The notes: generated from the sequence alone by a model not told the origin. Shown: positions 8,893 through 64,000, counted from the first letter of the stretch. The stretch is 64,000 nucleotides of DNA from a virus (IMGVR_UViG_3300014806_000004); one strand, 5' to 3'. Program-made: numbers and translations.

Positions 8893-8924
8893 TTTGGGAA
8901 AAGGGTTTCTTACCCTTTTCCCAA
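8893..8924. terminator. Bidirectional rho-independent terminator
   Basis: The hairpin gggaaaagggtttcttacccttttccc has T-tracts on both sides. Confidence 0.55.
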
Positions 8925-9097: not shown

Positions 9098-10855
9098 TTG
9101 CCTAAATGTATTTTAGCTGAGTAGGGTGAAAAAGGTGGAGGCTCTCTTTTTCTTGTAAAAATTGAAGTAACCACTCCCCCTAATAAAACAAGCTATCTTG
9201 CTGGTGACACATTTAATCCTGCTGGAATGGTAGTTACCGCATCTTACGGCATGGATGGTGTTATTGTAACAACAGCAGAAGTAACTGGATATCAAGTTAC
9301 TCCAAATCCTTTAACAGATGGGGTTACTGAAGTAACTATTACTTATTCAGAACTCGGTGAAACTTATCAAACTACCTAGAAGGTAACTGTTATTCATAAA
9401 CTTCTTAGTATTCAGGTTACTACTAACCCAACTAAGATGACCTATGAATATGGTGACACCCTTCAAACAACAGGAATGGTAGTTACAGCGAGTTACTCTG
9501 ATAGTAAAAGCGCGGCTGTTACAGGTTATACGTGCTCACCAACATCCTTAACTACAGTTGGCAGCTAGCAAATTACTGTTTCTTATACAGAGAATGAAGT
9601 AACTCAATCTGCGAAATTTACGGTAACTGTTGAGCGTAAATCTGTCGCTAAACCAACCTGGAAAAGTAATCTTACCTATACAGGTAATAGTCAATCAGTA
9701 AGTGGAACTTCTTATTGGAATAATTTCAATACCACTTATATGACGATTGGCGGAACTACTTCCGCTACTAATGCAGGAACTTATACAGCTACATTTACTC
9801 TAAAGAGCAATTATAGATGGGCTGATAAGACAACCGATAACCTTGATGTAAACTGGATTATTAATAAAGTCGCGGGTAGTTTAACTGTAAATCCAACTTC
9901 TGTTGCTCTTGATGGAGATAATTATAGTACTGGCGTTAAAGTTACTATTACTCGTGCGGGAGATGGAGCTATTAGCTATACTCCAACTAGCGTTACCGGT
10001 CTTACCCTCTCTTTAAGTGGTAATATTCTTACTATTAAAGGTGATGGCAGTACGGCTATTTCTTCTACTACGATTACTATTAAAGTCGCGGCCGGAACTA
10101 ACCATACTGCTCCAGGTAACAAGACTGTTACAGTAACAGCAAGCTATTGGGAGTGGGGTTCTGAAACTGCTACTGGTGATGCTAAGTGGTGGGCTGGATT
10201 AAAGACCTGGGCAGCTAAGGCCTCTTCCAGCGAAAGAAAGAAATGCGTAGGTAAAAAGAAACTCGTAAGTCTTTCTAGTGCGGTACTTGGCGCTAACGCC
10301 GCTACAATGATTTGTATTGGCGCTGATTAGGACGGAACTGGAACATTAACTTTCCAGACTGCGGGAACTTTACCTAATACTACAACATTTGGTAGTAACG
10401 CGTTATGGAATGGTTCAACCGCTCAATCCTTGTGCAATGACTTTGGTAATAGATGTAGCGCAACCGCTTCTATTAAATCTGTTACTAAGAAGACAAGCTC
10501 TGCTAGTAATGGTAATTAGAATAATACTGCGGATGTTCAAACAACTGCAAAATGTTGGCTACCTTCTGAATGTGAGATGGGATTTACTAGCTCTAACGGC
10601 TATGCTAGTTCTTATTAGGAGTGGACTGTTGGAGGAAGTTAGACAGCCTATAGTTACTATACAAGCAACTCTACTAGAGTTAAATACCAGATGAACGCCA
10701 ATGGTTCGTTGACGAATTCAACGATGCGGTATTGGGAACGGTCCCGTTACTACAACTACTCGACCTACGTTTGCCTTGTCGGCAACGATGGATCTGCGAA
10801 CCACTACTACTACTACAACAGCTACGGGCTGGCGCCGGCTTTCGTCATTGGATAA
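9098..10855 (+). CDS. DGR variable (target) protein: Ig-like (BIG-type) repeats plus a C-terminal lectin-like variable domain
   Basis: TTG start 7 nt after AGGAGGT. It has repeated Ig-like modules (TYEYGDTLQTTGMVVTASYSDS...VTGYT...VSYTE). About 7 in-frame TAGs. The last 35 codons form the variable repeat (VR) and end at TAA 10853. Confidence 0.75.
10739..10842 (+). repeat. DGR variable repeat (VR), in-frame at the 3' end of the target gene
   Basis: It is 104 bp long. It matches the TR at every position except 15, and at all 15 the TR base is A (VR has T, C or G). The GC-rich 3' end GGGCTGGCGCCGG is IMH-like. Confidence 0.85.
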
Positions 10856-10936
10856 TACAGCAAAATAACAATTCGGGACAGTTAAGATTAAATTATCCAA
10901 TAAAAAAATTATATATTCAAGTGAGGGAAATTTTAA

Positions 10937-11275
10937 ATGTCTGTAAAAGTAAAGGATAGACACCTATCAAAACAAGACTGTCTTTATAAAGCCCGTGAAT
11001 TGGTTGGCTACATTTTAGTCTTAACTCGTCCCAGAGAATTTGATAAGGATGGAAAACAAATCTGCAAACCTGGACTGCTTGGAGAGGGTCAACCTCTTCA
11101 AGCGTTCGGGTACGATATAATTAAATGCGGAAAGGGTATACACGCTTGCTGCTATGAGGCGTGTAAGATAAACTTAAAAGATAAAGAAACCCTTACAAAG
11201 AGAAATGAATATCACAATAAAGCGATTGAATATTGTGATAGTATATTTCGACAAATCGACCTATGTATTTATTAG
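10937..11275 (+). CDS. Accessory variability determinant (Avd)-like small protein
   Basis: The 112-aa basic ORF lies between the VR and TR, which is the canonical Avd position. There is no direct sequence match, so the call rests on context. Confidence 0.45.
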   Translation: MSVKVKDRHLSKQDCLYKARELVGYILVLTRPREFDKDGKQICKPGLLGEGQPLQAFGYDIIKCGKGIHACCYEACKINLKDKETLTKRNEYHNKAIEYCDSIFRQIDLCIY

Positions 11276-11461
11276 TATGCTCAAAACAGCAAAAAGAAAA
11301 GAAGATCTTTTGAACATCTAGCTAGATTGACTAAGAAAGTAAAAGAATCAATCCAAGATAGAAAAAATAGAGATAAACTTATAGTCGAGCATAGATATTC
11401 GGCTCCTAAAACTCATAGGAGAGGTCGATAATATTTTTCTGCGGTTAAGTTCTGTATCTTT

Positions 11462-11565
11462 CGGTCCCGTAACTACAACAACTCGAACAACGTTTGCAAT
11501 GTCAACAACGATGGATCTGCGAACAACAACAACTACAACAACAGCAACGGGCTGGCGCCGGATTA
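11462..11565 (+). repeat. DGR template repeat (TR)
   Basis: Non-coding and rich in AAC codons (cgtAACtacAACAACtcgAACAAC...). It is the adenine-containing partner of the VR and lies directly upstream of the RT gene. Confidence 0.85.
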
Positions 11566-11870
11566 GATGGAGCTATCATGTTGCGAGTTAAGCTGCGGAG
11601 CAGCGCAAACGAGCAACGCCTAAATAGTACCCCGGAGTATATTATTATCCATCTAATTAAGGTTTACTCTGGATTGCACCCACTATGTGGGGAAGAGATT
11701 GAGAGACCGTTAAAGAGCTTTGCTCTACAACTATCGAATAATATACTATAGGTAGATCTGCCTTTTCATCTAAGGAGAACTTAACCATTTCACTGAAAAA
11801 GTGGATAAAGTAAGACTGTAGACGTGGAGCTCGAGTAGCTACCACTATAGCTACATGATAAGGAGAAAGT

Positions 11871-13087
11871 ATGTCTGAAATAAACCAAGATACTGCTTTC
11901 GAGCGTTTTTGTAGTTTTGACGCTATGTATGATGCGTCTTATAAGGTATGTCGAAACATTCGATGGAAAGATAGTACAATTAATTTTGAAGAGAATAGGA
12001 TAGAAACAATTTTAAAAACAGAAGCTGATCTGCGAGCGTGTGAATACGAATAGCTTGTGTTTAGTTGTTTTTCGATAATCGAACGAGGCAAACCAAGAGA
12101 TATAAGAGCGTGTCATATCAACGACAGACTGGTACAAAATGCGTTATGTGAACAAGTTTTATTACCAGAATTAACTCCTAGATTTATCTACGATAATTGT
12201 GCGACTTTAAGAGGAAAAGGAATAGACTTTGCTTTAAAAAGAGTAAAGAAACACCTTCAACAAGCTCATAGGGAATATGGATTAGGAAAAGATTTTTATG
12301 GATTAAGAATTGATATTCAAAAATATTTTGATTCTATTGACCATAAATCTTTAAAGAAAGCAGCTAAACGTTTGATAAAAGATAAAAGAATTTATCAACT
12401 ATGCTGTTATTTAATAGATACATTTTCTTTTAAGCTAACAAAAGATTCCTCTCCCATACCAGGAAAAGATTATTATATTAGTAAACGGCACAAATACACG
12501 AGAATTAGTACCACTAATTTTAAGCCTGGCCGCAAATACTATGAATATGATAATAAAAGTCTTGGATTAGGAAGTCAAACATCACAATTATTCGCATTGC
12601 TAGCATTGAACGAAATTGACCACTTCATCAAAGAAGAGTTACATATTAAGTATTATGGTCGTTATATGGATGATTTATATTTATTCCACAATGACAGTCA
12701 ATACTTAGCCGAATGTGAAAAGAGAATAGAAGTTCGCTTAAATAAGCAAGGATTAAAGATGAATAAGAAAAAGACTACTATTACTAGAATCTCTCCTATT
12801 CACGCGGACGGCAAACGTCACGCTCCATTAAAATACTTAAAGTGGAACTTTTATCTCACAGACACTAATCATATAATACAAATTCCTTTTAAAAAGAAAG
12901 TGGCTCATTAGCGCAGAAAGTTAAAGAAAATGCAAGCGCTATGGCTAGAGGGTAAAATTTCAACAGATGAAATTTAGAAATCCTATCAAGGTTGGAGGGC
13001 ACATATTTCTAAAGGAACTTGTTTTTATATAATTCAAGATATGGACAATTATTTTCGTTCATTATTTAAAGGAGTTGAAATAAAGTA
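11871..13087 (+). CDS. DGR reverse transcriptase
   Basis: RBS AAGGAGAAAG. The N-terminus (SYKVCRNIRWKDSTINFEENRIETIL...ERGKPRDIRACHINDRLVQNAL) is typical of DGR RTs. It has LGLGSQTSQLFALLALNEID (DGR-type motif 4 with SQ) and YGRYMDDLYLF (YxDD). Three in-frame TAGs. TAA stop overlaps the next ATG. Confidence 0.85.
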
Positions 13088-17576: not shown

Positions 17577-19481
17577 TTATACTCTTGTTAATACTTCCGT
17601 GGCTGTAATACTCATAGTTCCATTATATGAAAGAGGTAAAGTGAATTGAGTTATCTAATAATTTCCACTAAGTCCACTGTCTTTATCTTCAACATAAAGA
17701 ATATTATTTGGTTCCATATAATATTTTGGTAAACAAGTAATGGATATAGTTGTATTATAATTTAAATTCTAATACAACATTTCTCTAATTTTATCAAAAC
17801 AACTCGCATTTGTGGAGCTTATTGAAAATAAATTATAATACTCAGAAGTAAGAACAAAAAATCTCTAACCAATTCCTCTATATTCTGCTATCAAATCCTG
17901 GTCTAATCCTTCAATAAATATAATATCAGGAGCTTCTATATTATATACGGAAGTTATATCAGAACTATTAATTACTTTAGTCCTTCTACCTATCTCATTT
18001 ATTGAATATTTTCCAATTTCTGAACCGGTATCTATAAAATCTAGCCAATAGTTTAGATTTCCTGGATTATTAAATACATCTGGATTCCAATGATTATATT
18101 CATCCCATTTCCCATTTAGTGGATTATATAAATTGCGCCATTCGGCGATTAATTCAGAGTCATAATAATTATCATATACACTATTTGTTACTTGTGCGTT
18201 TAATGCTTTACGATATAATTCCTCTCTCCACTCATTGCACGGAGATCCAACTAATTCTACTTCATATCCTGATATTGAATAATCAGAAGATATATTATTA
18301 AAATCATATCTTATAATTAATCCCGTCTCTTTATCACTCACAGCCCACATATAATATCCTGCTAAGTCAATTATTGGTTTAGTATCAATAGCAAGATGAT
18401 ACCTAATATCAACTTCTATTCCAGATGTAGTGGTTCTCTTTCCCCAAACATAAAAATCATTTTTTATATTATCAAACTTTGGACTGCGGGTTATGGCTGT
18501 AGTAGTATCAAGATCGGTTAAAGAGTATAAAAACTTAGCATTATTATAGCTCTTTACATAATTTTCTGGAGATAACTCTGTTAAAGGACTTCCAGTATTA
18601 AGATAATTCTTTATCTCCTAAAAGATAAAGCGACCATCTATATCATAAAAATACTCAAAATTTCCAAGAACTTCAACTATTTTATCTAATAGAGTAGTTA
18701 CAGTATCTCCAGCATCTAAAATTAATTCTCCCGGATAAGTAAATTCAGTTTCTCTATATCCAGCATCCTATCCATAACTTATCATATGAGGAAAATCAGC
18801 GCTTGGAGAAAAGTCCATACTTTCATAATTATTGCTAAAATATATGGGTTTATCTCCTATATATTTAACTAACATCTTACAAGTTTCTTCTATGTCAGCA
18901 ATAATAATATTTGTTATAGCTTCTCCGCCCCAATGGTTGACTGCTTCATATATAATTTGAAAGATAGTTGGATATACAATTTCTATATCTCCATCTTTTT
19001 TCTATATATAACTTTCATGAAAGGTTATAGAGCCTGGAAACGTCCCTCCTGCGGTTCCATCAAGTAAACACATTTTATCTTTTCCACTTATAGAGATTGT
19101 CCATCCAGAAGTGGATCTTGCTACCGATGCGTTAGATAAAACAAATAATCCACAAGGAAACCAAATTATATCTCCATATCTTGCATAAGACTTTAACGGA
19201 TTATTATATCCAACAAAAACTTTAACCTTCTTGTTTATTGAAATCTCATTATCTATATTTTCAATATCGCTATTATTCTCATTAGCCAACATAGTTAGGT
19301 TAATTGTTCTACGAACAGAGGACGATCCATTAACACTTAAACTACCAGCAGTTATGTTGCCCTATATTTCTCTAATAGGTTTTTCATCAAAAGAAAGTAA
19401 AATAATTTTTGCGTAATGAGTTTTAATATTTAATTTATCAAGAGCTATAAGGAAATCCATATCATTTAAATAATCAAACAT
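17577..19481 (-). CDS. Tail/baseplate protein
   Basis: ATG 19481 overlaps the upstream TGA (ATGTTTGA). 634 aa with N-terminal LTMLANENN...KVKVFVGYNNPLKSYARYGDIIWFPCGLFVLSNASVARSTSGWTISISGKDKMCLLDG. About 9 in-frame TAGs. Confidence 0.45.
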
Positions 19482-53028: not shown

Positions 53029-53800
53029 TATAAAAGAGTATTTTAAACAAGAGATAGAGAAATTGCTGGTTGATAGATCTGCAATTCCTTCTCTCATGAT
53101 TATCGACGCGACGGCCTAGGATCCCGCAAATCAAATTTATATTCGTAATAAAATAAAAGACTTTAATGCTCTTGGTTGGAAAGCAGAAGTATTTAGAGCT
53201 AATAGTTCAGTAGAATTAAAGTTATTTTTAGACCATGCGAAAGATTGGGATGCTGTAATAGTCCAAATGCCAATAGCAGACGGGATTGATTTCAATTATA
53301 ATCAAATACCTGTTTCTAAAGATGCAGATGGATTAAATCCAATGAGTAATATTACTCCAGCAACAGTAAGAGGAATTATAGATTATTTGGATAAATGTGG
53401 CTTTAACTACGAAGGTAAATCTGCTGTTGTTTTGGGAAGAAGCGATATTGTAGGAAAGCCAATGGCTAAAGCTCTTCTAGATAGAAATATGACCGTATCA
53501 ATGTGTCACAGTAAAACAGATATAAACACAAAACTCTATTTAACAAGACAAGCGGATTTAATTATCTCTGCGGTAGGAAAATTTAGCTTAACAAGAGAAG
53601 CCTGTCCTAATGCTATTGTTATAGATGTTGGTATTCGTAGAAATGAAGCAGGAATTATTCTTGGAGACTTTGTAGAAATTGATGAAATTGCAAGTAAAAA
53701 TAAGGTATGGTCAACTCCTGTCCCCGGAGGAGTAGGTCTATTAACAAGATTGGGGTTGATGAAAAATTGTTTATAGTTAGCGAAACAGGCACAAAGATAA
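53012..53800 (+). CDS. folD: Bifunctional methylene-THF dehydrogenase/cyclohydrolase
   Basis: It has DATA-TAG-DPANQIYIRNK (compare E. coli VGSNPASQIYVASK), DAVIVQMPIADG, KDADGLNP, GRSDIVGKPMAKALL and TPVPGGVGLLT. Two internal TAGs, plus an apparent TAG stop at 53774 followed 8 codons later by a TAATG overlap with the next gene. Confidence 0.75.
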
Positions 53801-54147
53801 TGAAATTTTCGGAAGATTTTGACAAATATGCTAAAGATATATTGCATATTCAAAACCCCTTTAAAAAATGGTTTAGAAGGTTGGATGAGGCCATCTCTAT
53901 TAGTGATGGAACTATAACTGTGGATGTAGACACCTCAAATCAAATAGATAGAGAAACAAAAGTAAACAGAGAAGAATGGATTAAGTTAAGAGATAGGTAT
54001 GTCGCAGAGAGAATACTGCGGGAACTTGGGTATGAAGTTCTATTAACCTCGTCTTATTTCGAATACTATCCTGATGCTATTCCTTGTGAAGGGGCTTCAG
54101 GGCAATGTACAATAGACTGTAGAATGAATGGATGTAAATATGAGTAA
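53800..54147 (+). CDS. Hypothetical protein with a Cys-rich C-terminus
   Basis: The ATG overlaps the TAA of the read-through folD. Confidence 0.4.
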   Translation: MKFSEDFDKYAKDILHIQNPFKKWFRRLDEAISISDGTITVDVDTSNQIDRETKVNREEWIKLRDRYVAERILRELGYEVLLTSSYFEYYPDAIPCEGASGQCTIDCRMNGCKYE

Positions 54148-54148
54148 A

Positions 54149-54328
54149 ATGTGTCCTTGCATTGATTATTGTTATAATAGATTCGGTCGGTAGTACACAC
54201 CAGACTGCGACAATACTTGCGATTATGCAATTAAAGTTAAAGAAAATAAAATGCTTAAAGAATATTTAAAGAGATTAGCGGCGGAAACAAATAGTTTACA
54301 CACTTTATTTGAAGATTGGGATAATTAA
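54149..54328 (+). CDS. Small Cys-rich protein (one TAG)
   Basis: MCPCIDYCYNRFGR-TAG-YTPDCDNTCDYAIK... Confidence 0.3.
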
Positions 54329-54372
54329 ATTATCCACTTCTGCCCAACCGCACGGAAGAAAGGAAACTGCAA

Positions 54373-55230
54373 ATGAAACGAGAAGAGCTCAAACAACACG
54401 CGCAATCGCATTACGCAGACATTAAAGTGAGACTCAAGGAAGATACAGATCGCGCAATTATAAACTCTGAAATTTTTGGCCCCAATCTTCCTTTTCCGCT
54501 AAAACCGCAAGAAACCTACCATAATACCTTTTATCTTAAAGACCAAGATAGCGTATCCTGTCTATTTGGTTTAACCGATCGGAGCAAGACCGCAATCTTA
54601 AATTATGCAAGCTATAAACATCCAGGTGGTTACTTCCTTGGAGGCAGCTCTGCACAAGAAGAGGCATTGTGTCACGAAAGCAACCTTTATCCTATTCTTC
54701 TTGCTTTTGATGATACTTATTACGCATGGAATAGACAGAGACTAAATCGAGCCCTATATCTTGATAGAGCTATCTATACTCCTGATGTAGTATTTGAAAA
54801 AGACAATGGTAGAAAATTAGCTGATGTAATTACTTGTGCTTCTCCTAATTATAGAACAGCACATACTTATCAGCAAGTTCCTCTTTCTCTAAACAATAGG
54901 ATAATGGAAGAGAGAATTAATTTTATGTATCGGATTGCCGAGGCTAAGGGAGTGGAAAATTTAATCGCGGGAGCCTGGGGCTGTGGTGTTTTTATGCAAG
55001 ATCCATCAACGGTCGCCACCTTGCTCGTAAGCGCAGCCCGCAATTATAATATTCCAAATATTTATTTTGCAATTCCCGCAATTTTAGAATTTTCTTGGAG
55101 GTTTTGGAAAAATGTTCAAGCAATTAATTATCGCAAGACGAGATTTAAATATGTCTCCAGGGAAACTTGCCGCACAAGTTTCCCATGCTTCTATTGCTTT
55201 TCTTTTGGAAAAGTTATATTGGGGAAGTAA
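54373..55230 (+). CDS. Macrodomain protein of the bacterial PARG-like (DUF2263/TIGR02452) type
   Basis: NYASYKHPGGYFLGGSSAQEEALCHESNLY fits the PARG signature GGG-x6-8-QEE. GAWGCGVFMQDPSTVA is also present. The 3' 119 nt overlap the next gene in another frame. Confidence 0.5.
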   Translation: MKREELKQHAQSHYADIKVRLKEDTDRAIINSEIFGPNLPFPLKPQETYHNTFYLKDQDSVSCLFGLTDRSKTAILNYASYKHPGGYFLGGSSAQEEALCHESNLYPILLAFDDTYYAWNRQRLNRALYLDRAIYTPDVVFEKDNGRKLADVITCASPNYRTAHTYQQVPLSLNNRIMEERINFMYRIAEAKGVENLIAGAWGCGVFMQDPSTVATLLVSAARNYNIPNIYFAIPAILEFSWRFWKNVQAINYRKTRFKYVSRETCRTSFPCFYCFSFGKVILGK

Positions 55231-55549
55231 AGAAGTTGTTAAAGAAAGAGACGGTCTTATGTATCATATAGGAATAAGCCTCGATAGAGACTTATTCCAT
55301 AACTGGATAGCGGAAGCGGAGACCAAAGTAGTTTGTAGAGCGAAGAATAAGAATGATTTGCTAAAAGCTGTTGCAATGGCTAAAGAATTAGGATGGGAAG
55401 AGAATAAAGACTACTGGCTTATTTATGATGCTTGTAGGACGGAGTTAGAGCGTGAAGGCCCGGAAGGGACTTTGACGTGTATTGGATTTAGGCCAATGGA
55501 GGCGGAAGAAATTGATAAAATTGGGAAGAAGTATCAGCTTTATAATTAA
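55112..55549 (+). CDS. pth2: Peptidyl-tRNA hydrolase, PTH2 family
   Basis: It has LIIARRDLNMSPGKLAAQVSHASIAF (Pth2 catalytic region), ...KVVCRAKN..LL.AVAMAKELG and LIYDACRTELE..GTLTCIGFRP. Confidence 0.6.
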   Translation: MFKQLIIARRDLNMSPGKLAAQVSHASIAFLLEKLYWGSKEVVKERDGLMYHIGISLDRDLFHNWIAEAETKVVCRAKNKNDLLKAVAMAKELGWEENKDYWLIYDACRTELEREGPEGTLTCIGFRPMEAEEIDKIGKKYQLYN

Positions 55550-55752: not shown

Positions 55753-55955
55753 ATTGAGATTGAAAAGTCGATTTAGATTTTGAAATGGCGTGGCAGAACG
55801 ATTTTACAAAAAAATTTCCAGTTTTTCCCAAAATACACGCCCCTCTTTCACATGGTAAAGTATTGAAGTGTAGTTGGCCTCTTTCACTCGTTAAAGTACG
55901 AAAGCAAGAAAGCACGCCCCTAAAGGAATACGCGCGCGTAAAGGGTTTATGCAAA

Positions 55956-55986
55956 CTGCACAACAAGATGTTATTTATTTTGTGCA
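55956..55986. promoter_or_regulatory. Palindromic operator pair TGCACAA-N16-TTGTGCAA
   Basis: The same inverted pair recurs at 59088-59119, 62216-62247, 63827-63857 and 63863-63903, with degenerate copies at 57655-57686 and 61059-61091. Confidence 0.5.
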
Positions 55987-56113
55987 AAAGAGAGAGAAAG
56001 AAATTTCAAAAAAACTATTGACAAGTGAGCATTTTGGTGGTAAACTGGACTTGTCCAGTAGGACAGAGACAAAAGCACGGCACTTTGAAAATTAAAAAAT
56101 TTCAAAAAAGGTA

Positions 56114-56142
56114 TTGACAAACTGCTAAAGGTTTGATACAAT
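56114..56142 (+). promoter_or_regulatory. Sigma-70-type promoter (TTGACA-17-TGaTACAAT). A second similar promoter lies at 56019, each preceded by an A-tract
   Basis: aaatttcaaaaaaggtaTTGACAaactgctaaaggtttgaTACAAT. The upstream copy is aaatttcaaaaaaactaTTGACAagtg. Confidence 0.5.
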
Positions 56143-56195
56143 ACAGACAGAACAAAAGAGAACCACATCACAAAAAGAAAGGGAGTCAAAAGAGT

Positions 56196-56570
56196 ATGAA
56201 AAAGATTGATTTTACCAATGAAGATCGAGCCATTATTATGGAGTATATGGCGGCTAAGATGGCTAAGTCTGCGGCGGAGGCGGCGGAGAAAGCAGCTAAG
56301 GCTAAGGCTAAAAAGCTATTCTCCAGATTAGGTAAGGCTTTTAAGGCTACGGACAAAACAAGTTATCTATATGGCACGGTACAAATGCAGGGTAAGGCGA
56401 AAGCGGTGGTATATAAAGAAACTACCGCAAAAGGAACGGTTGACTGGAAAGCCTATGCTATGGCATTAGGCGGGACAAAGGCCGAAGCAGAGCAATTCCG
56501 CAGACCTTCCGATGTTCGTACCTCTTTTGATTGGGCGACAAAGACCCAAGAAGAAGAAATTAGAGGATAA
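56196..56570 (+). CDS. Hypothetical basic Ala/Lys-rich protein
   Basis: RBS AAGGGAG, ATG 56196. It lies downstream of the tandem promoters. Confidence 0.4.
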   Translation: MKKIDFTNEDRAIIMEYMAAKMAKSAAEAAEKAAKAKAKKLFSRLGKAFKATDKTSYLYGTVQMQGKAKAVVYKETTAKGTVDWKAYAMALGGTKAEAEQFRRPSDVRTSFDWATKTQEEEIRG

Positions 56571-56574
56571 CAGT

Positions 56575-56610
56575 TTATAAACCCTGCCTTGCAAAACACA
56601 AGGCAAGGCA
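56575..56610 (+). terminator. Rho-independent terminator
   Basis: aaccctgccttgcAAAACACAAggcaaggcagggtt. Confidence 0.6.
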
Positions 56611-56644
56611 GGGTTATAATAATTAAAAGAAAGGGGCATACTAT

Positions 56645-56791
56645 ATGTATCAGTTACAAGTTTTAGCCAATGAGAAAATGCGCTATTATGAACCATTCAC
56701 CCTTTCAATGGCAAGATGGAAAGCCAGTCACGAGATAGTCAATCCTAATCATTGGATTGTGGATTTATCCAGTGGAGAAATCGTAGATTAA
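56645..56791 (+). CDS. Hypothetical small protein (48 aa)
   Basis: RBS AAAGGGG precedes ATG 56645. Confidence 0.3.
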   Translation: MYQLQVLANEKMRYYEPFTLSMARWKASHEIVNPNHWIVDLSSGEIVD

Positions 56792-56837
56792 AAAGAAGCT
56801 GACCTAACGGCTATACGGGGAGAAAGGATAAAAGACT

Positions 56838-57140
56838 ATGAACAATTATATTAAGTGGTTCGTTGGGCCTACTTTTAGAAAGCGTGAATTTATTAAACTT
56901 TTGCGGTATAAGATGAATGTGCGTTCCGCAGAGGTAGAGGACGGCATCATCTTAGACCTGGATGCTTTTAATGCCATGCGAGTGGCCTATATGCCACACT
57001 GGGCTTATATCAATAGAAAGTTTATCAATAGTAATCTGCATACCAGAATTGCAAGCGAAGACGAATATAAGGTTGCTATGATCGGAGATACAATCGGCAC
57101 TGAATGGGTTAAAGAACAGGAGGCAAAGAAATGGAAATGA
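56838..57140 (+). CDS. Hypothetical protein
   Basis: Intact ORF with RBS AAAGGATAAAAG. Confidence 0.4.
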   Translation: MNNYIKWFVGPTFRKREFIKLLRYKMNVRSAEVEDGIILDLDAFNAMRVAYMPHWAYINRKFINSNLHTRIASEDEYKVAMIGDTIGTEWVKEQEAKKWK

Positions 57141-57283
57141 GAATTATTAAGCGGATAGGAGGCGGCATTTGTGCCGCTCTCCTACTCTGGACAGTTCTTA
57201 GTTGGGCTGATATAGTGGCGGATAACTGTGAGCCAAACCCACAGCACAGCGAATATAATATGTTCGTTCTCATGACTAAATAA
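57137..57283 (+). CDS. Small membrane protein (48 aa)
   Basis: ATGA overlap with the upstream stop, plus a hydrophobic helix GGGICAALLLWTVLSW. Confidence 0.3.
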   Translation: MRIIKRIGGGICAALLLWTVLSWADIVADNCEPNPQHSEYNMFVLMTK

Positions 57284-57296
57284 TAGGAGAAAAAAA

Positions 57297-57530
57297 ATGT
57301 ATAGAGGGACTTATATCGACGCCATGGGCCGCAAGCGCAGAGAGATGGGATATTTCAGTCTTAATAAGCCCACTCTGAATAAACTCCATATACCAGTAAT
57401 TGTCCAAGCGAGAGATAAGACAAGTGCGGCGAATAAAATCAATAGGAAATATAAGTTGCGTATAAGTCCCAGCAATCTGCGGGAGGTGCCGATGGGCACG
57501 GGCTATCTCATGGAAACCATGGAGCTGTAA
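57297..57530 (+). CDS. Hypothetical protein
   Basis: RBS GGAG precedes the ORF, which is followed by the terminator at 57545-57576. Confidence 0.4.
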   Translation: MYRGTYIDAMGRKRREMGYFSLNKPTLNKLHIPVIVQARDKTSAANKINRKYKLRISPSNLREVPMGTGYLMETMEL

Positions 57531-57544
57531 AGGAATAATACTTG

Positions 57545-57576
57545 ACTGGCAATCTGCACAAAGATTGCCAGTCATT
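57545..57576 (+). terminator. Rho-independent terminator
   Basis: tgactggcaatcTGCACAAAGgattgccagtca followed by TTTTT. Confidence 0.55.
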
Positions 57577-57798
57577 TTTATGCACTTTTCCATATTGACT
57601 TTTCGCCGGGCCGCCAGCGTGCGCCGCGGCCCGAATTTTTATTTATTCGGCAATTTCAACAATTATATGACCGAAAGTCTGTGCAATTCGACGAAAGTTT
57701 TTCTCCCGAAATTACTTGACATTCCTCTTGTCATGTGTTATTATATACTTGTCCAGAGGGGCAAGGTCACAAAAAGAATTTGAAAGGAAGTAAAAGAA

Positions 57799-58038
57799 AT
57801 GACTTTGAAAATGATTGCAGGTCTGCTTTCTCCGCTCGCAGAAGATACCATGTTCTTTGACGGGAAAGGGGTCGAAATTATCAATGAGAATACCCAAGCT
57901 CATTACCATGAGCTACCTGATCACAAGATAACCCTGGGAGGAGACGTCATTGAGGCGTCTAAGGAATGGGTGCTGGGACTTCCGGTAACTGGTATTCAAG
58001 CAAGAGGCAACAATCTAATCATTTATGTAGATGGTTAA
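57799..58038 (+). CDS. Hypothetical protein
   Basis: Promoter TTGACA(57715)-17-TATTAT lies upstream. The ORF is followed by the hairpin gggagtggaggCCACAAAcctccactccc (58047-58078). Confidence 0.4.
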   Translation: MTLKMIAGLLSPLAEDTMFFDGKGVEIINENTQAHYHELPDHKITLGGDVIEASKEWVLGLPVTGIQARGNNLIIYVDG

Positions 58039-58100
58039 GAAAACTTGCGGGAGTGGAGGCCACAAACCTCCACTCCCCATGATAAAAAGGAGGAATAAAT

Positions 58101-58316
58101 ATGATTGCTGTTATTAAATTTGAAAGTGTAGAAAAATCTGCGGAGTTTGGAGACACAATTTGTAATATGGCTGGTTGGTGTTTGAATCATCCTCTTAATT
58201 CCAATGTTACCGGCTGTGTTCGTACTCTTGATTTTAATACCGGCGATAAACAAGATAGAGCCTTATATAATTATCTGCTAAAAATTGGAGCTTTCGAGGA
58301 GGTGGAACTAAAGTGA
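58101..58316 (+). CDS. Hypothetical protein
   Basis: RBS AAAGGAGG precedes ATG 58101. Confidence 0.4.
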   Translation: MIAVIKFESVEKSAEFGDTICNMAGWCLNHPLNSNVTGCVRTLDFNTGDKQDRALYNYLLKIGAFEEVELK

Positions 58317-58724
58317 GTATTGAGCGTTTACCGCATACATATCCTATCGGTTCCACTGTTTGGACAAATAAGGGATATGGCACAGTTCTACTTCACATTG
58401 GTAAATACCATCTGGTTTGGTTACAGAGATTAGGGCTGGCGTAATGCCGGCCCTATTGATTTTTTCAAAAAAATATATTATAATAATTATAGAAAAATAA
58501 AGAAAGGAGTTTTTCTAATGACCTTAGAAGTGCTGTGAAAGCACTCGCGGTTATTTTGGAGTTCTGTTTGAACTAGGATTCTTGTAAAAATTGTCCTATG
58601 TCTCAGTTCTGCCAGAAAATGCCTTGCGAGTGGTAAATGTTCCTTCCGATTGTTCTAAATCGGCGATTCCCGTGATGGAGTCGTTTTTCGCACGAGCCTA
58701 GGTCACTAGAATTTATTTATCAAA

Positions 58725-58958
58725 ATGCAAGAAACTACTTTCTCTCGCAAATTGGATTCAAGTGGTAGAATTATGATTCCGATTCGTTTGCGTGAACAAA
58801 TGGGACTTACTTCCGGTTAGGAATACTATTTCACTACTATGGTAAAAGATGGCAGAAAATACATCTGCATTGACTGCGGGTCGGTTAATTCTTCGCTTGA
58901 AGAAGCTATGAAAATTATCCAAGCAAACGGATTAAAGATTGTTGAAAATGCCGATTAA
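58725..58958 (+). CDS. AbrB/MazE-type (SpoVT_AbrB domain) small DNA-binding protein with one in-frame TAG
   Basis: KLDSSGRIMIPIRLREQMGLTSG-TAG-EYYF is the swapped-hairpin AbrB N-domain. It is preceded by a ~170-nt hairpin-rich leader. Confidence 0.45.
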
Positions 58959-59230
58959 CTTCTCAAAAGAAAGGGAGTTGTTGGTATGCAGAAATTAATG
59001 ACCTCCTGAAATTCAGGAGGTTCTTTTTTTATTCGTTCGCCCGGCCGTGCACCACAGGCGCGGCCGGATTTTTTATCAAGAGGCAATTTGCACAATTTTA
59101 GGCTCGAATTGTTGTGCAATCTGACGGAAGATTTTTTCCCAAAATTGCTTGACTTTCTATCTGTTATCTGTTATACTTGTATCATCAAGAGGGGAGAACA
59201 AAAGCCCTCGAAACAAAAGGAGAATGAGTT

Positions 59231-59464
59231 ATGTATCTGGTAATGGCTGACAGTAGAGAAAAGATTATCGGCGTTTCTGATACTGAAACTGGCGCACGCC
59301 ATGCGGGATGGGACTGGCTCAAGGCCCAGTATTCCGAAAGCGAGTGGAGCCAAATTCTGGAAGATATGGACTATGAGAATGAAGGGGACTTGCGGCATGA
59401 CCTTCTCATGGGCGCATATTGGGAAGATTTCGATATGGAGATTATCGAGGTTAAGAGGGTATAA
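59231..59464 (+). CDS. Hypothetical acidic protein
   Basis: Promoter TTGACT(59149)-17-TATACT lies upstream, with RBS AAAGGAG. Confidence 0.4.
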   Translation: MYLVMADSREKIIGVSDTETGARHAGWDWLKAQYSESEWSQILEDMDYENEGDLRHDLLMGAYWEDFDMEIIEVKRV

Positions 59465-59493
59465 ACCCTCTTAACCAGAAAAGGAGTATATAT

Positions 59494-59646
59494 ATGACTA
59501 CCTTCACAATGATTGTTTTGATTGCGTTTGTGGCCTGCCTTGCATGGCAGTTAATGGCGGCTGCTCAAAAAGGCTGTATTCGGCTTGAAATCATGTTTGC
59601 CGCAGAAATTCTAATGTTCGCATATTTGGCAAAAAATTTGATGTAA
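59494..59646 (+). CDS. Small membrane protein (50 aa)
   Basis: RBS AAGGAG and a single TM helix. Confidence 0.3.
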   Translation: MTTFTMIVLIAFVACLAWQLMAAAQKGCIRLEIMFAAEILMFAYLAKNLM

Positions 59647-59730
59647 AGGGTTGACAAACCGCTTAAACAGTGGTATAATCAATAATGTAAAGAGAAGGAA
59701 AACTCATTAAACCAGAAAGGAAATATTGCT

Positions 59731-59961
59731 ATGTATAGAATGACTGAGCAGGATAGACAGGGGATTATTCTTCTGCATAAGACCATGGAGGAGTTCTGCC
59801 CAGGAGAAGCAGCACAGGCAATGCTCCAGTCTTTGGGGAAATTCCTGCGGATCGGCATGTGTACTCCCGATGACGCGGCCGATATTATCAAGGGTATTTT
59901 CGATGAGGAAGCCGATAAGGCGGTTGATGAAATGACTATGATGGATTTACTTTCCTTGTAA
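59731..59961 (+). CDS. Hypothetical protein
   Basis: Promoter TTGACA-17-TGgTATAAT (59655-59685) lies upstream, with RBS GAAAGGAAA. Confidence 0.4.
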   Translation: MYRMTEQDRQGIILLHKTMEEFCPGEAAQAMLQSLGKFLRIGMCTPDDAADIIKGIFDEEADKAVDEMTMMDLLSL

Positions 59962-60055
59962 AAAGGGGTTGACAAATTGCCCCTTCTGTGGTACAATAAG
60001 ACTATGGAAGGGGCAGCCCCAAAAATAAATTAAAATAAGAAAGGGAGTTTTAGAA

Positions 60056-60454
60056 ATGCGTGTTACTAAGAGGATTGAAGCCTATATCAATGACGAGGTC
60101 AACAAGATTGCGAACGCCAAGCGAGAGGAAATCCGAGCCAAGTATGCGGGAGCTATGAAAGAGTTTGAGGATTTTATCGAGGAAGGCCGGAAAGAGATTG
60201 GGGCGCTGAATACAAAGATTATTGAGCGCGCCACGGCAAAGGGATATAAGCTCCGCCGCTATTATGACCCGGAGTGCGCCAAGTCAAATATGTGCAGTCT
60301 TTACAACCCCATCAATCAAACGATGGATGAAGAGCTGTCCACTGTGACAAAGTGGGTAGAGGAAAATGCAAGTCTGATTTGTGTCAAGCTGGAAATGGGC
60401 GGCGATATGAAAACTCTGTCTACTCTGCTGGACGAACTGCGGAAATCGCTTTAA
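60056..60454 (+). CDS. Hypothetical protein
   Basis: Promoter TTGACA-TGgTACAAT (59967-59997) lies upstream, with RBS AAGGGAG. Confidence 0.4.
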   Translation: MRVTKRIEAYINDEVNKIANAKREEIRAKYAGAMKEFEDFIEEGRKEIGALNTKIIERATAKGYKLRRYYDPECAKSNMCSLYNPINQTMDEELSTVTKWVEENASLICVKLEMGGDMKTLSTLLDELRKSL

Positions 60455-60509
60455 GGAAAGGAGGCGCGGGAGTATAGGACTTGTATTCTATGCTCCCGCG
60501 ATAAAAAAA

Positions 60510-60968
60510 ATGAGAGCTGTTGGTATTGTTCGACATATTGATGACCTAGGGCGTATTGTTATTCCTAGAGAAATTCGTAGGAGTATGCGAATTAGAGAAG
60601 GCGACCCTATGGAAATTTTTCTTGATGGCGACTGTATAGCCTTCAAGAAATATTCTCCACTATCTTTTTTCGTTGACCATGCCCACGAAATGCGAAATGC
60701 CCTTTCTGTTAATCACATTTCCGCGGCGATCTTCGATTCAGATAAACTTTTAAGCGGGCCTAGTTCTTTCAAAATTTCTATACCACCAGATGAATGGAGT
60801 AATATCAGCCAACCTGCGACAGCGTGGAAATCTATGTTTATTACTCCCATTTTTTCTGATGGGGGACAAATTGGATTCATTTGTTACAAAAATCTGCACA
60901 ATGATGAATCTATTCACGAAATGGTTAAATTAGTCGCAAGGTATTTTTCAAATATGGCTGAAAGATAA
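60510..60968 (+). CDS. SpoVT/AbrB-family transcriptional regulator (AbrB N-domain plus a C-terminal GAF-like domain)
   Basis: MRAVGIVRHIDDLGRIVIPREIRRSMRIREGDPMEIFLDGDCIAFKKY is the AbrB N-domain, and the ~100-aa C-terminus is arranged as in SpoVT. Confidence 0.6.
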   Translation: MRAVGIVRHIDDLGRIVIPREIRRSMRIREGDPMEIFLDGDCIAFKKYSPLSFFVDHAHEMRNALSVNHISAAIFDSDKLLSGPSSFKISIPPDEWSNISQPATAWKSMFITPIFSDGGQIGFICYKNLHNDESIHEMVKLVARYFSNMAER

Positions 60969-61155
60969 AAGAAGGGCTTCGGCCCTTCTTTTTTTATACA
61001 CTAAAAATTCGACGGCGCGCTGACGCACGCGGCGCGCCGAGTTTTCTTATTTGTAAGTTCTATACAATTTTTGTCTTGAAATCTTGTGCAATTTGCCATC
61101 TTGCAATTATCCTTAAATTATGGTATTATTAGTACAGAAAAAGGAGGGGTACTAA

Positions 61156-61404
61156 ATGAAACCTTCAAAGTTTATTCAGCCCAATGAATACTTAACCGTG
61201 GCTGAAATTTATCGTAGACAATTCGGGCATACTACTACCCCGGTTAATTATGAGATTTATATACGAACTGTGCTTTTACAAGACCCTCTGATCTATATAG
61301 ATTATATGTCAATGCCTTATAAGGTATATCGGCGTAAAACTTTTTTTGAAAAACTTGTTGACAAGGTGTGCAATGAGTGGTATAATAAAACAAAAGGAGA
61401 TTGA
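61156..61404 (+). CDS. Hypothetical protein
   Basis: Promoter TTGCAA-17-TGgTATTAT lies upstream, with RBS AAAGGAGGGG. Confidence 0.4.
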   Translation: MKPSKFIQPNEYLTVAEIYRRQFGHTTTPVNYEIYIRTVLLQDPLIYIDYMSMPYKVYRRKTFFEKLVDKVCNEWYNKTKGD

Positions 61405-61410
61405 TATACA

Positions 61411-61872
61411 ATGACTAAAAAAATGCTCTGCTTTGACATGGATGGAACTATCGCGGACTTGTATGCAGTCCCTAATTGGCTCGAAAAACTCCGCAATGGA
61501 GACCCTACCCCATTCCGAGACGCGGCCCCTATGTGGGACATGGAAGCCCTCCGAAATGCGCTTCTAAAAGCAATCAATAACGGATGGGAAATTAGAGTAA
61601 TTACATGGCTACCACCTGAAAGCACTCCCGAATATAAGAAAGCAGTCACAGCCGCAAAAAAGGAATGGCTTGCAAGGTATAAATTTCCGGCCCATAAATG
61701 TCATTGTGTGGCATACGGAACGACCAAAGCCAAATGTGTATTCCGTAGTTTCTATGAACCGCCGTTTATCCTTTTTGATGATAATGATAAAATTAGGCAC
61801 GGTTGGCATTTAGGAGATACAATAAATCCAGGAGAGACAGACATAATCGAATATATCAACAATCTAAACTGA
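61411..61872 (+). CDS. HAD-superfamily 5'(3')-deoxyribonucleotidase-like protein
   Basis: MLCFDMDGTIADLY is HAD motif I (DxDGT), and FILFDDNDK is a motif-IV-like segment, as in NT5C-type phage nucleotidases. Confidence 0.5.
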   Translation: MTKKMLCFDMDGTIADLYAVPNWLEKLRNGDPTPFRDAAPMWDMEALRNALLKAINNGWEIRVITWLPPESTPEYKKAVTAAKKEWLARYKFPAHKCHCVAYGTTKAKCVFRSFYEPPFILFDDNDKIRHGWHLGDTINPGETDIIEYINNLN

Positions 61873-61918
61873 GTAAGAGGGCGGGGTTAAAATCCCCGCC
61901 CCGCAAAGAAAGGGAGTT

Positions 61919-62119
61919 TTGCAAATGGAAATTCGGAAAGTTAGTAGGCTTGTTCTCGGTTCGATAGAGAAAAAAGCCTTGAGAGATGCGTCAATCCTCA
62001 TAAGCCAGATTAGCAGGAATATGGAAGATAATGAAATTGATGATAACTTTCCTGTCTCTCTTGATGATCTGGTATATGGAATAGATGAACTAATCAACAG
62101 GGAATATATTGGATATTAA
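61919..62119 (+). CDS. Hypothetical protein
   Basis: It is flanked by terminators at 61882-61905 and 62125-62155. Confidence 0.35.
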   Translation: MQMEIRKVSRLVLGSIEKKALRDASILISQISRNMEDNEIDDNFPVSLDDLVYGIDELINREYIGY

Positions 62120-62513
62120 AAATACCCCTCTCAATAATGAGAGGGGTATTTTTTTATTGTCATTTGAGCGGCCCGCGCTTGGGCGGTGCGGGCCGAATTT
62201 TTTTCTTTGTAAATGTTGCACAATTTTGGCGGCAAAAAGTTGTGCAATTTGCCATCTTGTAATTCTCCCAAAAGTATGGTATTATTATCATGTCAGGAGG
62301 GAAGGGCCAAGAAATCAAGAGGTCGCGAACTCTTAGAAAGTAAAGGAAGAAAATGGGTATTTGTGTTATAAGTCGAGCGAACGCCTTTGGAATAGGCCAT
62401 TCCATCGTCCAGTAGCTTGCAATAAATCGCAACAAAATTTCCTTTTCCTCTTGACACCAAGCCTTAAATGTGCTATAATAATACCATCAAGAGAAGAAAG
62501 GACTTGATAGATT

Positions 62514-63338
62514 ATGATTGATAAACGCAGACATTATGTGCTGGTGGTTGACACTGAAACCGCCAACACACTAACCGAAACCGTTCCCGCTGAAATCGGG
62601 GAGGATGGGGAGATTATCACTCCTGAGCGTGTCCGCATGGATATGTCAAATGTACTGGTATATGACTGCGGTTGGGCTGTAGTAGACACCAAGGGCAATA
62701 TTTACGAAACTGCAAGTTTTGTAAATCGGGACATTTTCAATGACGAGCGGGATTTAATGCGGACGGCCTATTATAATTGGAAAATCCCCCGCTATGTTGA
62801 GGAATTGCGGGCCGGCACTCGTAAGATGGCTACAACCTATGAAATCCGGCAGGCTATGCTTGATACTATCGAGCGATACGGCATTAAAGAGGTGGCTGCT
62901 TATAATGCCCGGTTTGACGATAACGCTCTGCGGGTCACTCAACGATGGGTCACTTGCTCTAAGTTTCGCTACTGGTTCCCGTTTGACAGTGTGGAAATTT
63001 GGGACATTATGAAGATGACACAAGATGTTATCTGCAATATGCCCACTTATAAGAAATTCTGTCAGGAAAACGGATATGTCCAAGCCAATGGCGTTCCTCG
63101 TAAGACTGCGGAAATCGTGTGGCGGTTTATTTCTGGCAATACCGATTTTGAAGAAAGTCATACGGGGCTTGAGGATGTTCTCATTGAGGCGGAAATCATG
63201 TGGTATTGTATGCGTCAGCATAAGCCCATGAGAAAGGCCCTGTATGAGAATAAGAGAGAGTTTCCACCTATGACAGATTTTCAGCGTCAACTTTCCGCAA
63301 GTATGCGTTCAATTCCAACTATCCGGGTAGGGGCTTAA
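62514..63338 (+). CDS. DEDDh 3'-5' exonuclease (DnaQ/KapD-like)
   Basis: VVDTETA is Exo I, YNARFDDNAL is Exo II and HTGLEDVLIEAEI is Exo III (H-x4-D). Confidence 0.65.
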   Translation: MIDKRRHYVLVVDTETANTLTETVPAEIGEDGEIITPERVRMDMSNVLVYDCGWAVVDTKGNIYETASFVNRDIFNDERDLMRTAYYNWKIPRYVEELRAGTRKMATTYEIRQAMLDTIERYGIKEVAAYNARFDDNALRVTQRWVTCSKFRYWFPFDSVEIWDIMKMTQDVICNMPTYKKFCQENGYVQANGVPRKTAEIVWRFISGNTDFEESHTGLEDVLIEAEIMWYCMRQHKPMRKALYENKREFPPMTDFQRQLSASMRSIPTIRVGA

Positions 63339-63365
63339 AGCCCCGCCCGGCAGAAAGGAAATAAT

Positions 63366-63557
63366 ATGTCTCAAGTTCATTGTATGCGGTGGAGTTGCCC
63401 GCATTATGCCGAGGAAGGCATGGACCCAGAACAAATCTATGATACTATCTGTCCAGATTTTGACACGGAATCACTTTGTTGCTCTTTGGGTGAGCCATGG
63501 TTCGACTGTGACGAATATCAGAGACAATATGGAGTTGATGATTTCGAGGAGGAATAA
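63366..63557 (+). CDS. Hypothetical Cys-rich acidic protein
   Basis: RBS AAAGGAAATAAT precedes ATG 63366. Confidence 0.35.
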   Translation: MSQVHCMRWSCPHYAEEGMDPEQIYDTICPDFDTESLCCSLGEPWFDCDEYQRQYGVDDFEEE

Positions 63558-63558
63558 A

Positions 63559-63741
63559 ATGGTAACAAAAACTGTATATACCTCTTCTCTGTGTGCAGAT
63601 GCCGTTTACATGGCAATTCAAATTATTGAGCGTATGGGATGGTGTCATGATGATATTGACGAAGATGGAAATATGCTGGTAAATGTTCCCATTGAGGATG
63701 AACACCTGTTTGATTTTCTGGATAACTGTATTTTCTGTTAA
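63559..63741 (+). CDS. Hypothetical protein (60 aa)
   Basis: It is coupled to the upstream gene and followed by the terminator gaagggcttcggcccttc. Confidence 0.35.
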   Translation: MVTKTVYTSSLCADAVYMAIQIIERMGWCHDDIDEDGNMLVNVPIEDEHLFDFLDNCIFC

Positions 63742-63760
63742 GAAGGGCTTCGGCCCTTCT
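63742..63760 (+). terminator. Rho-independent terminator; an identical copy is at 60971-60989
   Basis: gaagggcttcggcccttc followed by TTTTTTTATAC in both copies. Confidence 0.6.
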
Positions 63761-64000
63761 TTTTTTATACAAAATTTGAGCGGGTCGCGCAGGAACGGCG
63801 CGACCCGAGTTTTTCTTTGTAAATTCTGCACAAAAATTTCAGCCCCGTTTTGTGCAAAATTCTGCACAAAAACTTTCTCCCAAAATTCTGATTTCTTGTG
63901 CAATTTGACGCTTGCAATCTGCTTTTGCTTGTGGTAAAATACATTCAGAAAGTGAGAGAGACGAACGGCAGACAGCGACAGCGAATTTCTTAAAAATCTT

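Follow-up and report, generated by a model that had tools for sequence, protein, structure and literature searches.

The viral stretch IMGVR_UViG_3300014806_000004 raises a question of gene control: why does the palindrome TGCACAA-N16-TTGTGCA, an inverted pair of short half-sites held 16 nucleotides (nt) apart, recur in front of its early promoters, and which protein, if any, reads it? A preliminary description of the 64,000-nt DNA analysed here (hereafter referred to as the window) had interpreted the repeated pair as the operator of a shared regulon, and named two AbrB/SpoVT-type proteins encoded in the same region as its obvious binders. Here we report that the distribution and conservation of the palindrome support a cis-regulatory site that is shared by at least six early transcription units and stands at their head, and that the same palindrome occurs in promoter regions of Oscillospirales. 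A host-encoded regulator borrowed by the phage has, in our estimate, an even chance of being the binder, and ranks before a phage winged-helix protein, the phage AbrB-type proteins and the absence of any binder, in that order.

We scanned the whole window for TGCACAA-N16-TTGTGCA, allowing up to two mismatches, and obtained six matches, as compared with 0.24 expected from 100 dinucleotide shuffles, none of which reached six. All six are confined to positions 55,957–63,856: four are exact (starting at 55957, 59089, 62217 and 63827) and two are imperfect (57555, with one mismatch, and 61061, with two mismatches and a degenerate left half). An exact form with a 26-nt spacer (N26) occupies 63863–63903, and a further degenerate site, TTCAACAA...CTGTGCAA at 57655–57686, was seen in the sequence and in the repeat family D4. 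Of nine copies of the right half-site octamer TTGTGCAA in the window (2.06 expected window-wide), eight fall within 55,980–63,903. When spacer lengths from 0 to 60 were tried, only N16 and N26 gave independent matches, the rest being overlaps inside the sixth unit or chance; an N26/N36 periodicity inside the window was rejected as an overlap artefact, save for the single true N26 site. The palindromes lie in non-coding DNA, each 3′ of a terminator and 5′ of a predicted TTGnnn-N17-TAnnnT promoter. Thus, the recurrent N16 pair of the preliminary description is real, its 26-nt-spacer pair is exact, both of its degenerate sites (57655–57686 and 61059–61091) were recovered, and its placement of the sites between terminator and promoter holds throughout; the motif search that it had proposed gave, on the window, an enrichment over the shuffles and not a chance frequency. 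The site at 57555 is an addition to that list. It overlaps a terminator hairpin; its perfect counterpart in a close relative (L122:5748) makes it probably real as well.

Each site forms part of a composite cassette, six of which occur within 8 kilobases (kb), as delineated by repeat families and predicted terminators and promoters. The order is an ordinary intrinsic terminator, a GC-rich hairpin with a T-run, 15–20 nt of intervening sequence, the palindrome and a sigma-70-type promoter. The GC-rich second hairpin is 27 nt long, with a predicted free energy (dG) of −20 to −23 kcal/mol, and its stems vary between copies while the pairing is kept. The predicted cassette promoters usually have an extended −10 element. 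The position of the palindrome between terminators and promoter makes a role as an RNA hairpin unlikely. At least five consensus promoters without an operator are predicted in the same region (56114, 59651, 59969, 61358 and 62451), beside the six operator-bearing ones, and the region therefore has two promoter classes. At the operator-bearing promoters of units 4–6 the predicted −35 hexamers are weak (TTGCAA and TTGTAA), which is compatible with the need for a helper protein.

The palindrome is conserved in related phages in a manner that points to its half-sites. We retrieved 27 related viral contigs (12–164 kb, mostly longer than 80 kb) by their exonuclease gene (74–97% identity, one at 36%), and 25 of them carry one to seven sites each in the 12–21 kb examined per contig. 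Alignment on the motif, over 25 spacer classes, revealed invariant half-sites and only 0–0.5 bit of information per spacer position; upstream of the exonuclease gene, the orthologs of operator 5 keep their half-sites around six unrelated spacers. The kept half-sites and free spacers indicate selection on two short contact patches, rather than duplicated DNA. A pattern-only scan of viral contigs found many loci with distant exonuclease and HAD-like homologs (25–47% identity), and the motif is retained at this exonuclease distance, both in L023, which has 10 sites in 12.9 kb, and in phAss-1, in which N16 and N26 sites are all located in the early end (126.7–133 kb). The palindrome was not found in the related Enterococcus phage EF1, despite its multi-promoter early layout.

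The geometry of the site is equally regular. The half-site TTG-YR-CAA is a small palindrome itself, and the half-site centres are 24 base pairs (bp) apart (34 bp in the N26 form), an arrangement suggesting a protein with two separated dimeric DNA-binding heads. We scanned 40 non-redundant phage sites, of which 28 have a strong promoter downstream, predicted and not mapped. The gap between the right half-site and the predicted −35 element is 8–9 nt in 12 cases, 18–19 nt in 5 and 29–30 nt in 7, with 4 exceptions. The gaps therefore differ by whole helical turns, so that the palindrome would face the same side of the helix at these promoters, with its dyad predicted to be centred near −60, −70 or −81. 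Such positions are typical of upstream activators that touch RNA polymerase, and a repressor that masks upstream contacts or loops the DNA could also be accommodated. CRP class I sites are centred at −61.5, −71.5 and −82.5, and the palindrome dyads resemble them in lying near −60, −70 and −81 on one helical face. The NikR operator has half-sites 16 bp apart, and the likeness here is the 16-bp spacer between short half-sites, which implies two separated DNA-binding heads. Neither operator has any sequence similarity to the palindrome, whose positions derive from predicted promoters, and the analysis identified no protein of the CRP or NikR type.

Bacterial chromosomes carry the palindrome as well. 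When one genome from each bacterial species was searched with all 16 bases of the palindrome, at least 120 loci matched. Among the matches listed, 92 of 120 are in Clostridia, overwhelmingly Oscillospirales (Acutalibacteraceae, Oscillospiraceae and Ruminococcaceae), including the isolates Ruminococcus bromii ATCC 27255, Pseudoruminococcus massiliensis and Faecalibacterium intestinale, and only two of the 120 loci contain any marker of this phage family. Among these listed matches, 63 of 94 clostridial sites are intergenic, versus 3 of 29 in other taxa, which is the chance level for gene-dense genomes. Furthermore, clostridial and phage sites share a flank signature, TnGnCA, whereas the non-clostridial flanks in the listed matches are flat. 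The genes adjoining the listed host sites encode peptide and sugar transporters, phosphotransferase system (PTS) components, extracytoplasmic function (ECF) sigma factors, TetR and LacI regulators and a germination protease. In seven loci (L157, L211, L237, L239, L241, L242 and L254), an orthologous near-consensus promoter with unrelated spacers has the form TTGCACAA-N16-TTGTGCAA-N6-TTGACA-N17-TATAAT, and precedes a conserved open reading frame (ORF) of about 40 amino acids that is resolved in five of the seven and, in one locus, lies between a tryptophan-synthase-like gene and a glycosidase. Pfam, NCBIfam and homolog searches with this 40-residue product returned a real family with no name. 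In Ruminococcus bromii ATCC 27255 (L250, positions 300–1700), four operator-like sites occur within 700 nt in an ORF-poor array of hairpins with T-runs, adjoining a tyrosine-recombinase-like gene; this may be a small RNA gene array or part of a mobile element.

These chromosomal sites are hard to explain unless Oscillospirales encode a protein that recognizes the palindrome. Whether that host protein is also what binds the phage sites is, on the sequence evidence, an evenly balanced proposition. Beside the host sites in the matches listed we looked for an autoregulated regulator, and saw TetR (6 loci), LacI, PadR and ECF sigma factor genes, none of them dominant; the single host spoVT gene found has the site downstream of it, not upstream. 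More tentatively, and with somewhat less than even confidence, we suggest that an undescribed global regulator, present throughout the Oscillospirales (the order of Faecalibacterium and Ruminococcus), recognizes the palindrome, and that a large clade of TAG-recoded gut phages has wired nearly all of its insulated early units to this regulator.

In the mechanism that we propose, the palindrome would be a candidate protein-binding site of the cassette that opens each insulated early transcription unit. Two dimeric heads (a dimer of dimers), one per half-site, would bind 5′ of the promoter, on a single side of the helix, and the bound protein would help or hinder the recruitment of RNA polymerase at all cassette promoters together; the sign of regulation may be activation or repression. 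A host regulator could be used by the infecting phage from the first minute of infection, and early expression would then be tied to the physiological state of the host, as with Spo0A in phi29. In a second role, the cassettes would supply the homology at which recombination removes or exchanges early modules.

Several observations weigh against a host regulator as the binder. The host loci are 8-kb stretches, mostly from metagenome-assembled genomes, and the taxonomic enrichment among the matches listed rests on the internal comparison of intergenic with coding sites. The promoters and gap distances are predictions, and the site-to-promoter gaps in the hosts (6, about 24, about 34 and about 44 nt) are out of phase with those in the phages. 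The literature searched by half-site strings does not mention the motif, and the binder is only a candidate. Finally, a phage protein with the specificity of the host factor would give the same phage-side picture.

A host regulator acting on phage early promoters has a precedent in Spo0A. The Spo0A box has the consensus TGNCGAA; the half-site TTGTGCAA is not such a box, TGTGCAA differing from it at both core positions. The linker after many right half-sites reads TGnCGA-like, and an adjacent 0A-like box is possible. In two lytic phages of Bacillus, phi29 and Nf, early promoters bear sites for the Spo0A of the host (PMC2731898). The likeness would be that several early promoters of a virulent phage are equipped with sites for a global regulator of its host, whose state decides whether the early programme runs. 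The arrangement differs, being a strict N16 inverted pair 5′ of the −35 element here and single or tandem boxes overlapping the promoters there. As the source of the palindrome itself, Spo0A, CodY and sigma-54 were each rejected on sequence or arrangement, by comparison with their consensus sequences. At the late A3 promoter of phi29, the regulator p4 binds a site that is centred near −82 and composed of inverted repeats with about 15 bp between them. The palindrome shares with these sites the short inverted repeats with about 1.5 helical turns of non-conserved DNA between them, the class-I-like position 5′ of a sigma-A promoter and the use of one protein for several promoters. It differs in that the site sequences are unrelated and that the sites here head early units, rather than an early/late switch region. 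No p4 homolog was found among the early-region proteins scanned against Pfam and PHROGs, in which the AbrB type was the sole DNA-binding family detected.

The Rex operator is an inverted TTGTGAA-N4-TTCACAA or TTGTTAA-N4-TTAACAA. Rex was rejected as well, because the window holds only the everted N16/N26 arrangement, and Rex-like boxes were seen just in EF1 and L147. In EF1 (L152, MF001358), positions 11438–12155 and 17738–18253 contain six Rex-box-like TTGTGAA-N4-TTCACAA sequences (0.39 expected) and the cre-like tgtaagcgcttaca, which points to sites for further host regulators in phages of this kind. In L147, arrays of TTAACAA-N16-TTGTTAA at 8690–12950, with ACCGGGCGC in the spacer, flank one of two winged-helix genes. 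Read in the other register, these arrays are TTGTTAA-N4-TTAACAA, which is the clostridial Rex-box consensus.

The binders named in the preliminary description are the two AbrB/SpoVT-type proteins of the window, both encoded on the + strand, which in that proposal would act as tetramers with one swapped-hairpin dimer per half-site. The small AbrB-like gene (58725–58958) matches phrog_4681 (E = 9e-8) and falls below the Pfam cut-off, but belongs to the same jackhmmer family as the SpoVT-like gene (60510–60968), which matches PF04014 (E = 4e-8) and consists of an AbrB N-terminal domain and a C-terminal domain. These are the only recognizable DNA-binding proteins in the early region of the window, and the SpoVT tetramer has two separated DNA-binding heads, an architecture that could fit mini-palindromic half-sites 24 bp apart. 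Moreover, the small gene, present in 25 of the 27 family loci, has an in-frame TAG at 58818–58820. The position of this codon varies among relatives (L122, L129, L074, L133 and others), always aligned with glutamine elsewhere, and no other gene of the early region was seen to contain a TAG; the full-length product of the small gene may therefore be made only once TAG suppression starts. As a refinement of the proposal, this delayed full-length protein could possibly switch the early units off.

However, the distribution of the sites argues otherwise. Complete phAss-1 has the sites and no AbrB/SpoVT ORF (best hmmsearch --max E value 0.54), in a search of its six-frame translation with TAG read through, using jackhmmer from the window proteins and Bacillus AbrB/SpoVT followed by hmmsearch --max. 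Four site-rich loci (L023, L013, L017 and L117) have no AbrB gene in the DNA examined, and the SpoVT-like gene is missing from 11 of the 27 family loci; three relatives that have lost it (L123, L124 and L126) keep five sites each. Neither gene lies behind an operator-bearing promoter, the SpoVT-like gene being in an operator-less unit. The same palindrome stands in ordinary Oscillospirales promoters, where phage-family markers are confined to the two loci noted above among the matches listed. Furthermore, the DNA-binding domain is nearly identical among the phage SpoVT-like protein, a host SpoVT (L162) and the SpoVT of Bacillus subtilis. With a domain this nearly invariant, the concentration of the motif in a single order of Clostridia speaks against its being a generic SpoVT/AbrB site. 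The AbrB motif is a paired TGGNA, which the half-site TTGTGCAA does not resemble. We therefore regard the AbrB/SpoVT-type proteins as improbable binders, although the small AbrB-like protein, which is divergent, may yet be one. Of the regulon proposed in the preliminary description, the shared-operator architecture stands, with conserved half-sites, free spacers and a common predicted helical phase, whereas the AbrB/SpoVT-type proteins as obvious binders do not, given the AbrB-free phAss-1, the retention of sites in L123, L124 and L126 and the sites on host chromosomes.

Another phage protein is a more plausible candidate. Directly behind the double operator 6, past the end of the window, the close relative L122 encodes a 133-residue protein (L122:11713–12114), and unit 6 would drive this gene in close relatives. 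Pfam and PDB sequence searches gave no family for it, and tblastn against deposited phages gave one weak, unannotated match. An AlphaFold model (predicted local distance difference test (pLDDT) score 90) consists of two N-terminal helices and a C-terminal winged helix, which resembles the DNA-binding domains of PerR/Fur, ArsR and SSV1 F-93 (best Foldseek E = 3e-3). This protein could be the binder, made early and acting as a shut-off repressor or an activator of all cassette promoters, its own included. In that case, either the chromosomal sites would serve a host factor of no relation to it, or the phage protein would have evolved as a competitor for the sites of that factor.

The family is far wider than AbrB: an iterative search found it in all 27 related loci and in phAss-1, as well as in about a dozen distant motif-bearing loci (L023, L013, L017, L117, L004, L036, L038, L057, L093, L103 and L118), and it comprises 2,481 clusters at E ≤ 1e-3. 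The gene follows the densest operator cluster both in the window family and in L023, in which three sites lie within 420 nt upstream of it, and the modelled fold itself resembles DNA-binding domains. In L147, the recognition helix differs and the palindrome reads TTAACAA-N16-TTGTTAA with the same spacing. Against this, the covariation comes from that single lineage, and a comparison of recognition helix and palindrome in L004, L093, L118, L036, L038 and L057 gave no new palindrome families. The co-occurrence is confounded by synteny, as the exonuclease and HAD genes co-occur equally; an operator lies within 900 nt upstream in fewer than half of the sampled genes, and not in phAss-1; the fold is generic, with a best Foldseek E value of only 3e-3; and no homolog was found in the 120 bacterial loci listed, save the phage-like L234, which leaves the host sites unexplained. 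On balance, we consider it possible but doubtful that the winged-helix protein is the binder.

The cassettes are also sites of recombination. Relatives L123 and L124 equal L125 minus 1.65 kb, with the crossover in TGCACAATTTT, a sequence common to two cassettes, and L126 has an independent 1.65-kb deletion with its crossover in the T-run after the GC hairpin, as established by comparing the joints at L125:7168 and 8820 with L123:8820 and L126:8820. The deletions took the SpoVT-like gene and its neighbours and left five sites in each contig. Gene content between cassettes varies among the relatives, and the cassettes also act as homology patches for the deletion or swapping of early gene modules. 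With crossovers inside them, they are comparable in behaviour to the PeSL (promoter-early stem-loop) cassettes, promoter-terminator units by which T4-like phages shuffle their early genes (PMC2839356, PMC4122927). In both systems, repeated terminator/early-promoter composites flank small variable early ORFs, and the indel joints of close relatives fall inside the cassettes. However, the present phage is not a T4-like myovirus, as its structural genes match phAss-1, and the host promoter type is different; moreover, its cassettes hold two tandem terminators and a palindromic operator that is found in host chromosomes too.

From the two independent joints and the parallel with PeSL cassettes, it could be argued that no protein binds at all, and that the repeat persists only because a mobile terminator-promoter cassette, which spreads and mediates the shuffling of modules, uses it as a patch of homology, or because the duplication of intergenic DNA has left it behind. 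Homology would keep contiguous sequence, however, and not two 7–8-mers around a free 16-nt spacer, and this explanation does not account for the helical phasing to the −35 element, the retention at 25–47% exonuclease identity or the intergenic chromosomal sites in Oscillospirales. We consider it very improbable. The recombination role is an addition to the operator function, not a replacement for it, and from the conserved half-sites and their phasing we infer protein binding.

The individual units of the window are arranged as follows. Operator 1 (cTGCACAA-N16-TTGTGCAA, 55956–55987) precedes a predicted promoter 30 nt downstream (56018–56046), and a second, operator-less promoter is predicted at 56114–56142; its orthologs in L121, L123, L125, L127, L129 and L141 have differing spacers. 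Ahead of this operator, at 55810–55950, the relatives share a conserved acgcgcgcgtaaag and short ctctttcac-N-gtaaagt repeats with the window. In unit 2, a terminator hairpin on the + strand (57543–57574) carries the additional site TGCACAA-N16-TTATGCA (57555–57584) in its loop and tail, so that the composite spans 57543–57584, followed by the GC-rich second hairpin on the + strand (57607–57633, dG −20 kcal/mol) and its T-run. Operator 2, which is degenerate (TTCAACAA-N16-cTGTGCAA, 57655–57686), is followed by a TYTCCCRAAA box (57702–57711) and the predicted promoter (57716–57744).

Unit 3 opens with tandem + strand terminators (59000–59067; ordinary hairpin 59000–59022, GC-rich hairpin 59041–59067), followed by operator 3 (TTGCACAA-N16-TTGTGCAA, 59088–59119), a box at 59135–59144 and a predicted promoter at 59149–59177, at a gap of 29 nt. 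The + strand terminators of unit 4 (60969–61039) comprise hairpins at 60969–60990 and, GC-rich, 61013–61039. Operator 4 (61060–61091) reads cTATACAA-N16-TTGTGCAA; its left half is degenerate here and perfect in the ortholog L121:8301, and the predicted promoter (61101–61129, TTGCAA-N17-TGgTATTAT) follows after 9 nt. Unit 5 has + strand terminators at 62118–62195 (62118–62153 and the GC-rich 62169–62195), operator 5 (TTGCACAA-N16-TTGTGCAA, 62216–62247) and, after a gap of 9 nt, a predicted promoter (62257–62285) whose spacer contains a box (62264–62273). In unit 6, the + strand terminators (63740–63807; 63740–63761 and the GC-rich 63781–63807) precede the double operator 6 (63826–63903), which consists of cTGCACAA-N16-TTGTGCAA (63826–63857) and cTGCACAA-N26-TTGTGCAA (63862–63903); a box (63876–63885) lies inside the N26 site, and the predicted promoter (63912–63940) begins after a gap of 8 nt. 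The terminators at 60969–61000 and 63740–63771 are identical over 32 of 32 nt (AAGAAGGGCTTCGGCCCTTCTTTTTTTATACA), and the genes that they end are unrelated.

The TYTCCCRAAA box has six exact copies in the window, five of them on the + strand in this region (55824, 57702, 59135, 62264 and 63876). Four of these five lie 15–18 nt past a right half-site, in the promoter spacer (unit 5) or 5′ of the −35 element (units 2 and 3). In phAss-1 and L023, a similar TCTCCCRRAA is located inside the operator spacer. Two long stretches lack a convincing ORF: 165 nt (62290–62450) that separate the operator-bearing promoter at 62257 from the one that follows at 62451, and a leader of about 235 nt (58490–58724) before the small AbrB-like gene, kept in the relatives and broken by stops. 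Rfam contained no family for either, and over 52–64 kb it gave only sub-threshold matches, on terminators.

The phage itself can be placed from its code and its structural genes. Positions 1–52000 have almost no long ORFs in the standard code, in which only 14 ORFs of at least 150 residues occur in the first 56 kb, and reading TAG as sense restores the coding density. No tRNA genes, and hence no suppressor tRNA, were found in the window. The early region (52–64 kb) uses the standard code, with many small ORFs and a G+C content of about 41%, as compared with about 32%. A TAG-recoded human-gut phage of 136 kb, phAss-1, for which its authors inferred siphovirus morphology (PMC10607447), matches the structural genes, and the window phage is, by these gene matches, a large TAG-recoded gut phage of Clostridia related to phAss-1. 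A megablast search with the region found no match among deposited phages. The recognizable early proteins are a microbial-type poly(ADP-ribose) glycohydrolase (PARG), a PTH2 peptidyl-tRNA hydrolase, an exonuclease homolog (so annotated in Enterococcus phage H1) and the two AbrB/SpoVT-type proteins, and a 153-residue early protein was called HAD-like from its N-terminal sequence. Upstream of the cassettes, 53267–55549 encodes a FolD-like NAD(P)-binding domain protein, the PARG and PTH2, with the last two ORFs overlapping by about 118 nt. Past the end of the window, a conserved 105-residue early protein (L122:12253–12570) follows the winged-helix gene.

Phages with one operator common to several early promoters, lytic phages bearing sites for host factors and promoter-terminator cassettes that are mobile are all familiar kinds of system; the literature searched contains no description of this motif, of the matching site in hosts or of its occurrence in a clade of TAG-recoded phages. 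What is known of gene control in stop-codon-recoded gut phages comes almost entirely from their genome sequences, and a common early operator provides a concrete, testable control point. The cassettes explain the gain and loss of early gene modules in the clade, and the in-frame TAG in an early regulator gene hints at a link between recoding and transcription. If the binder is a host factor, the motif would tie these phages to Oscillospirales hosts and expose a regulon in important, poorly tractable gut commensals. Should it prove to be a global regulator of that order, the physiological state of the host would decide whether infection starts or stalls, and the palindrome would offer a new host regulon in largely uncultured gut bacteria, an aid to phage–host prediction and a handle on the timing of recoded phages.

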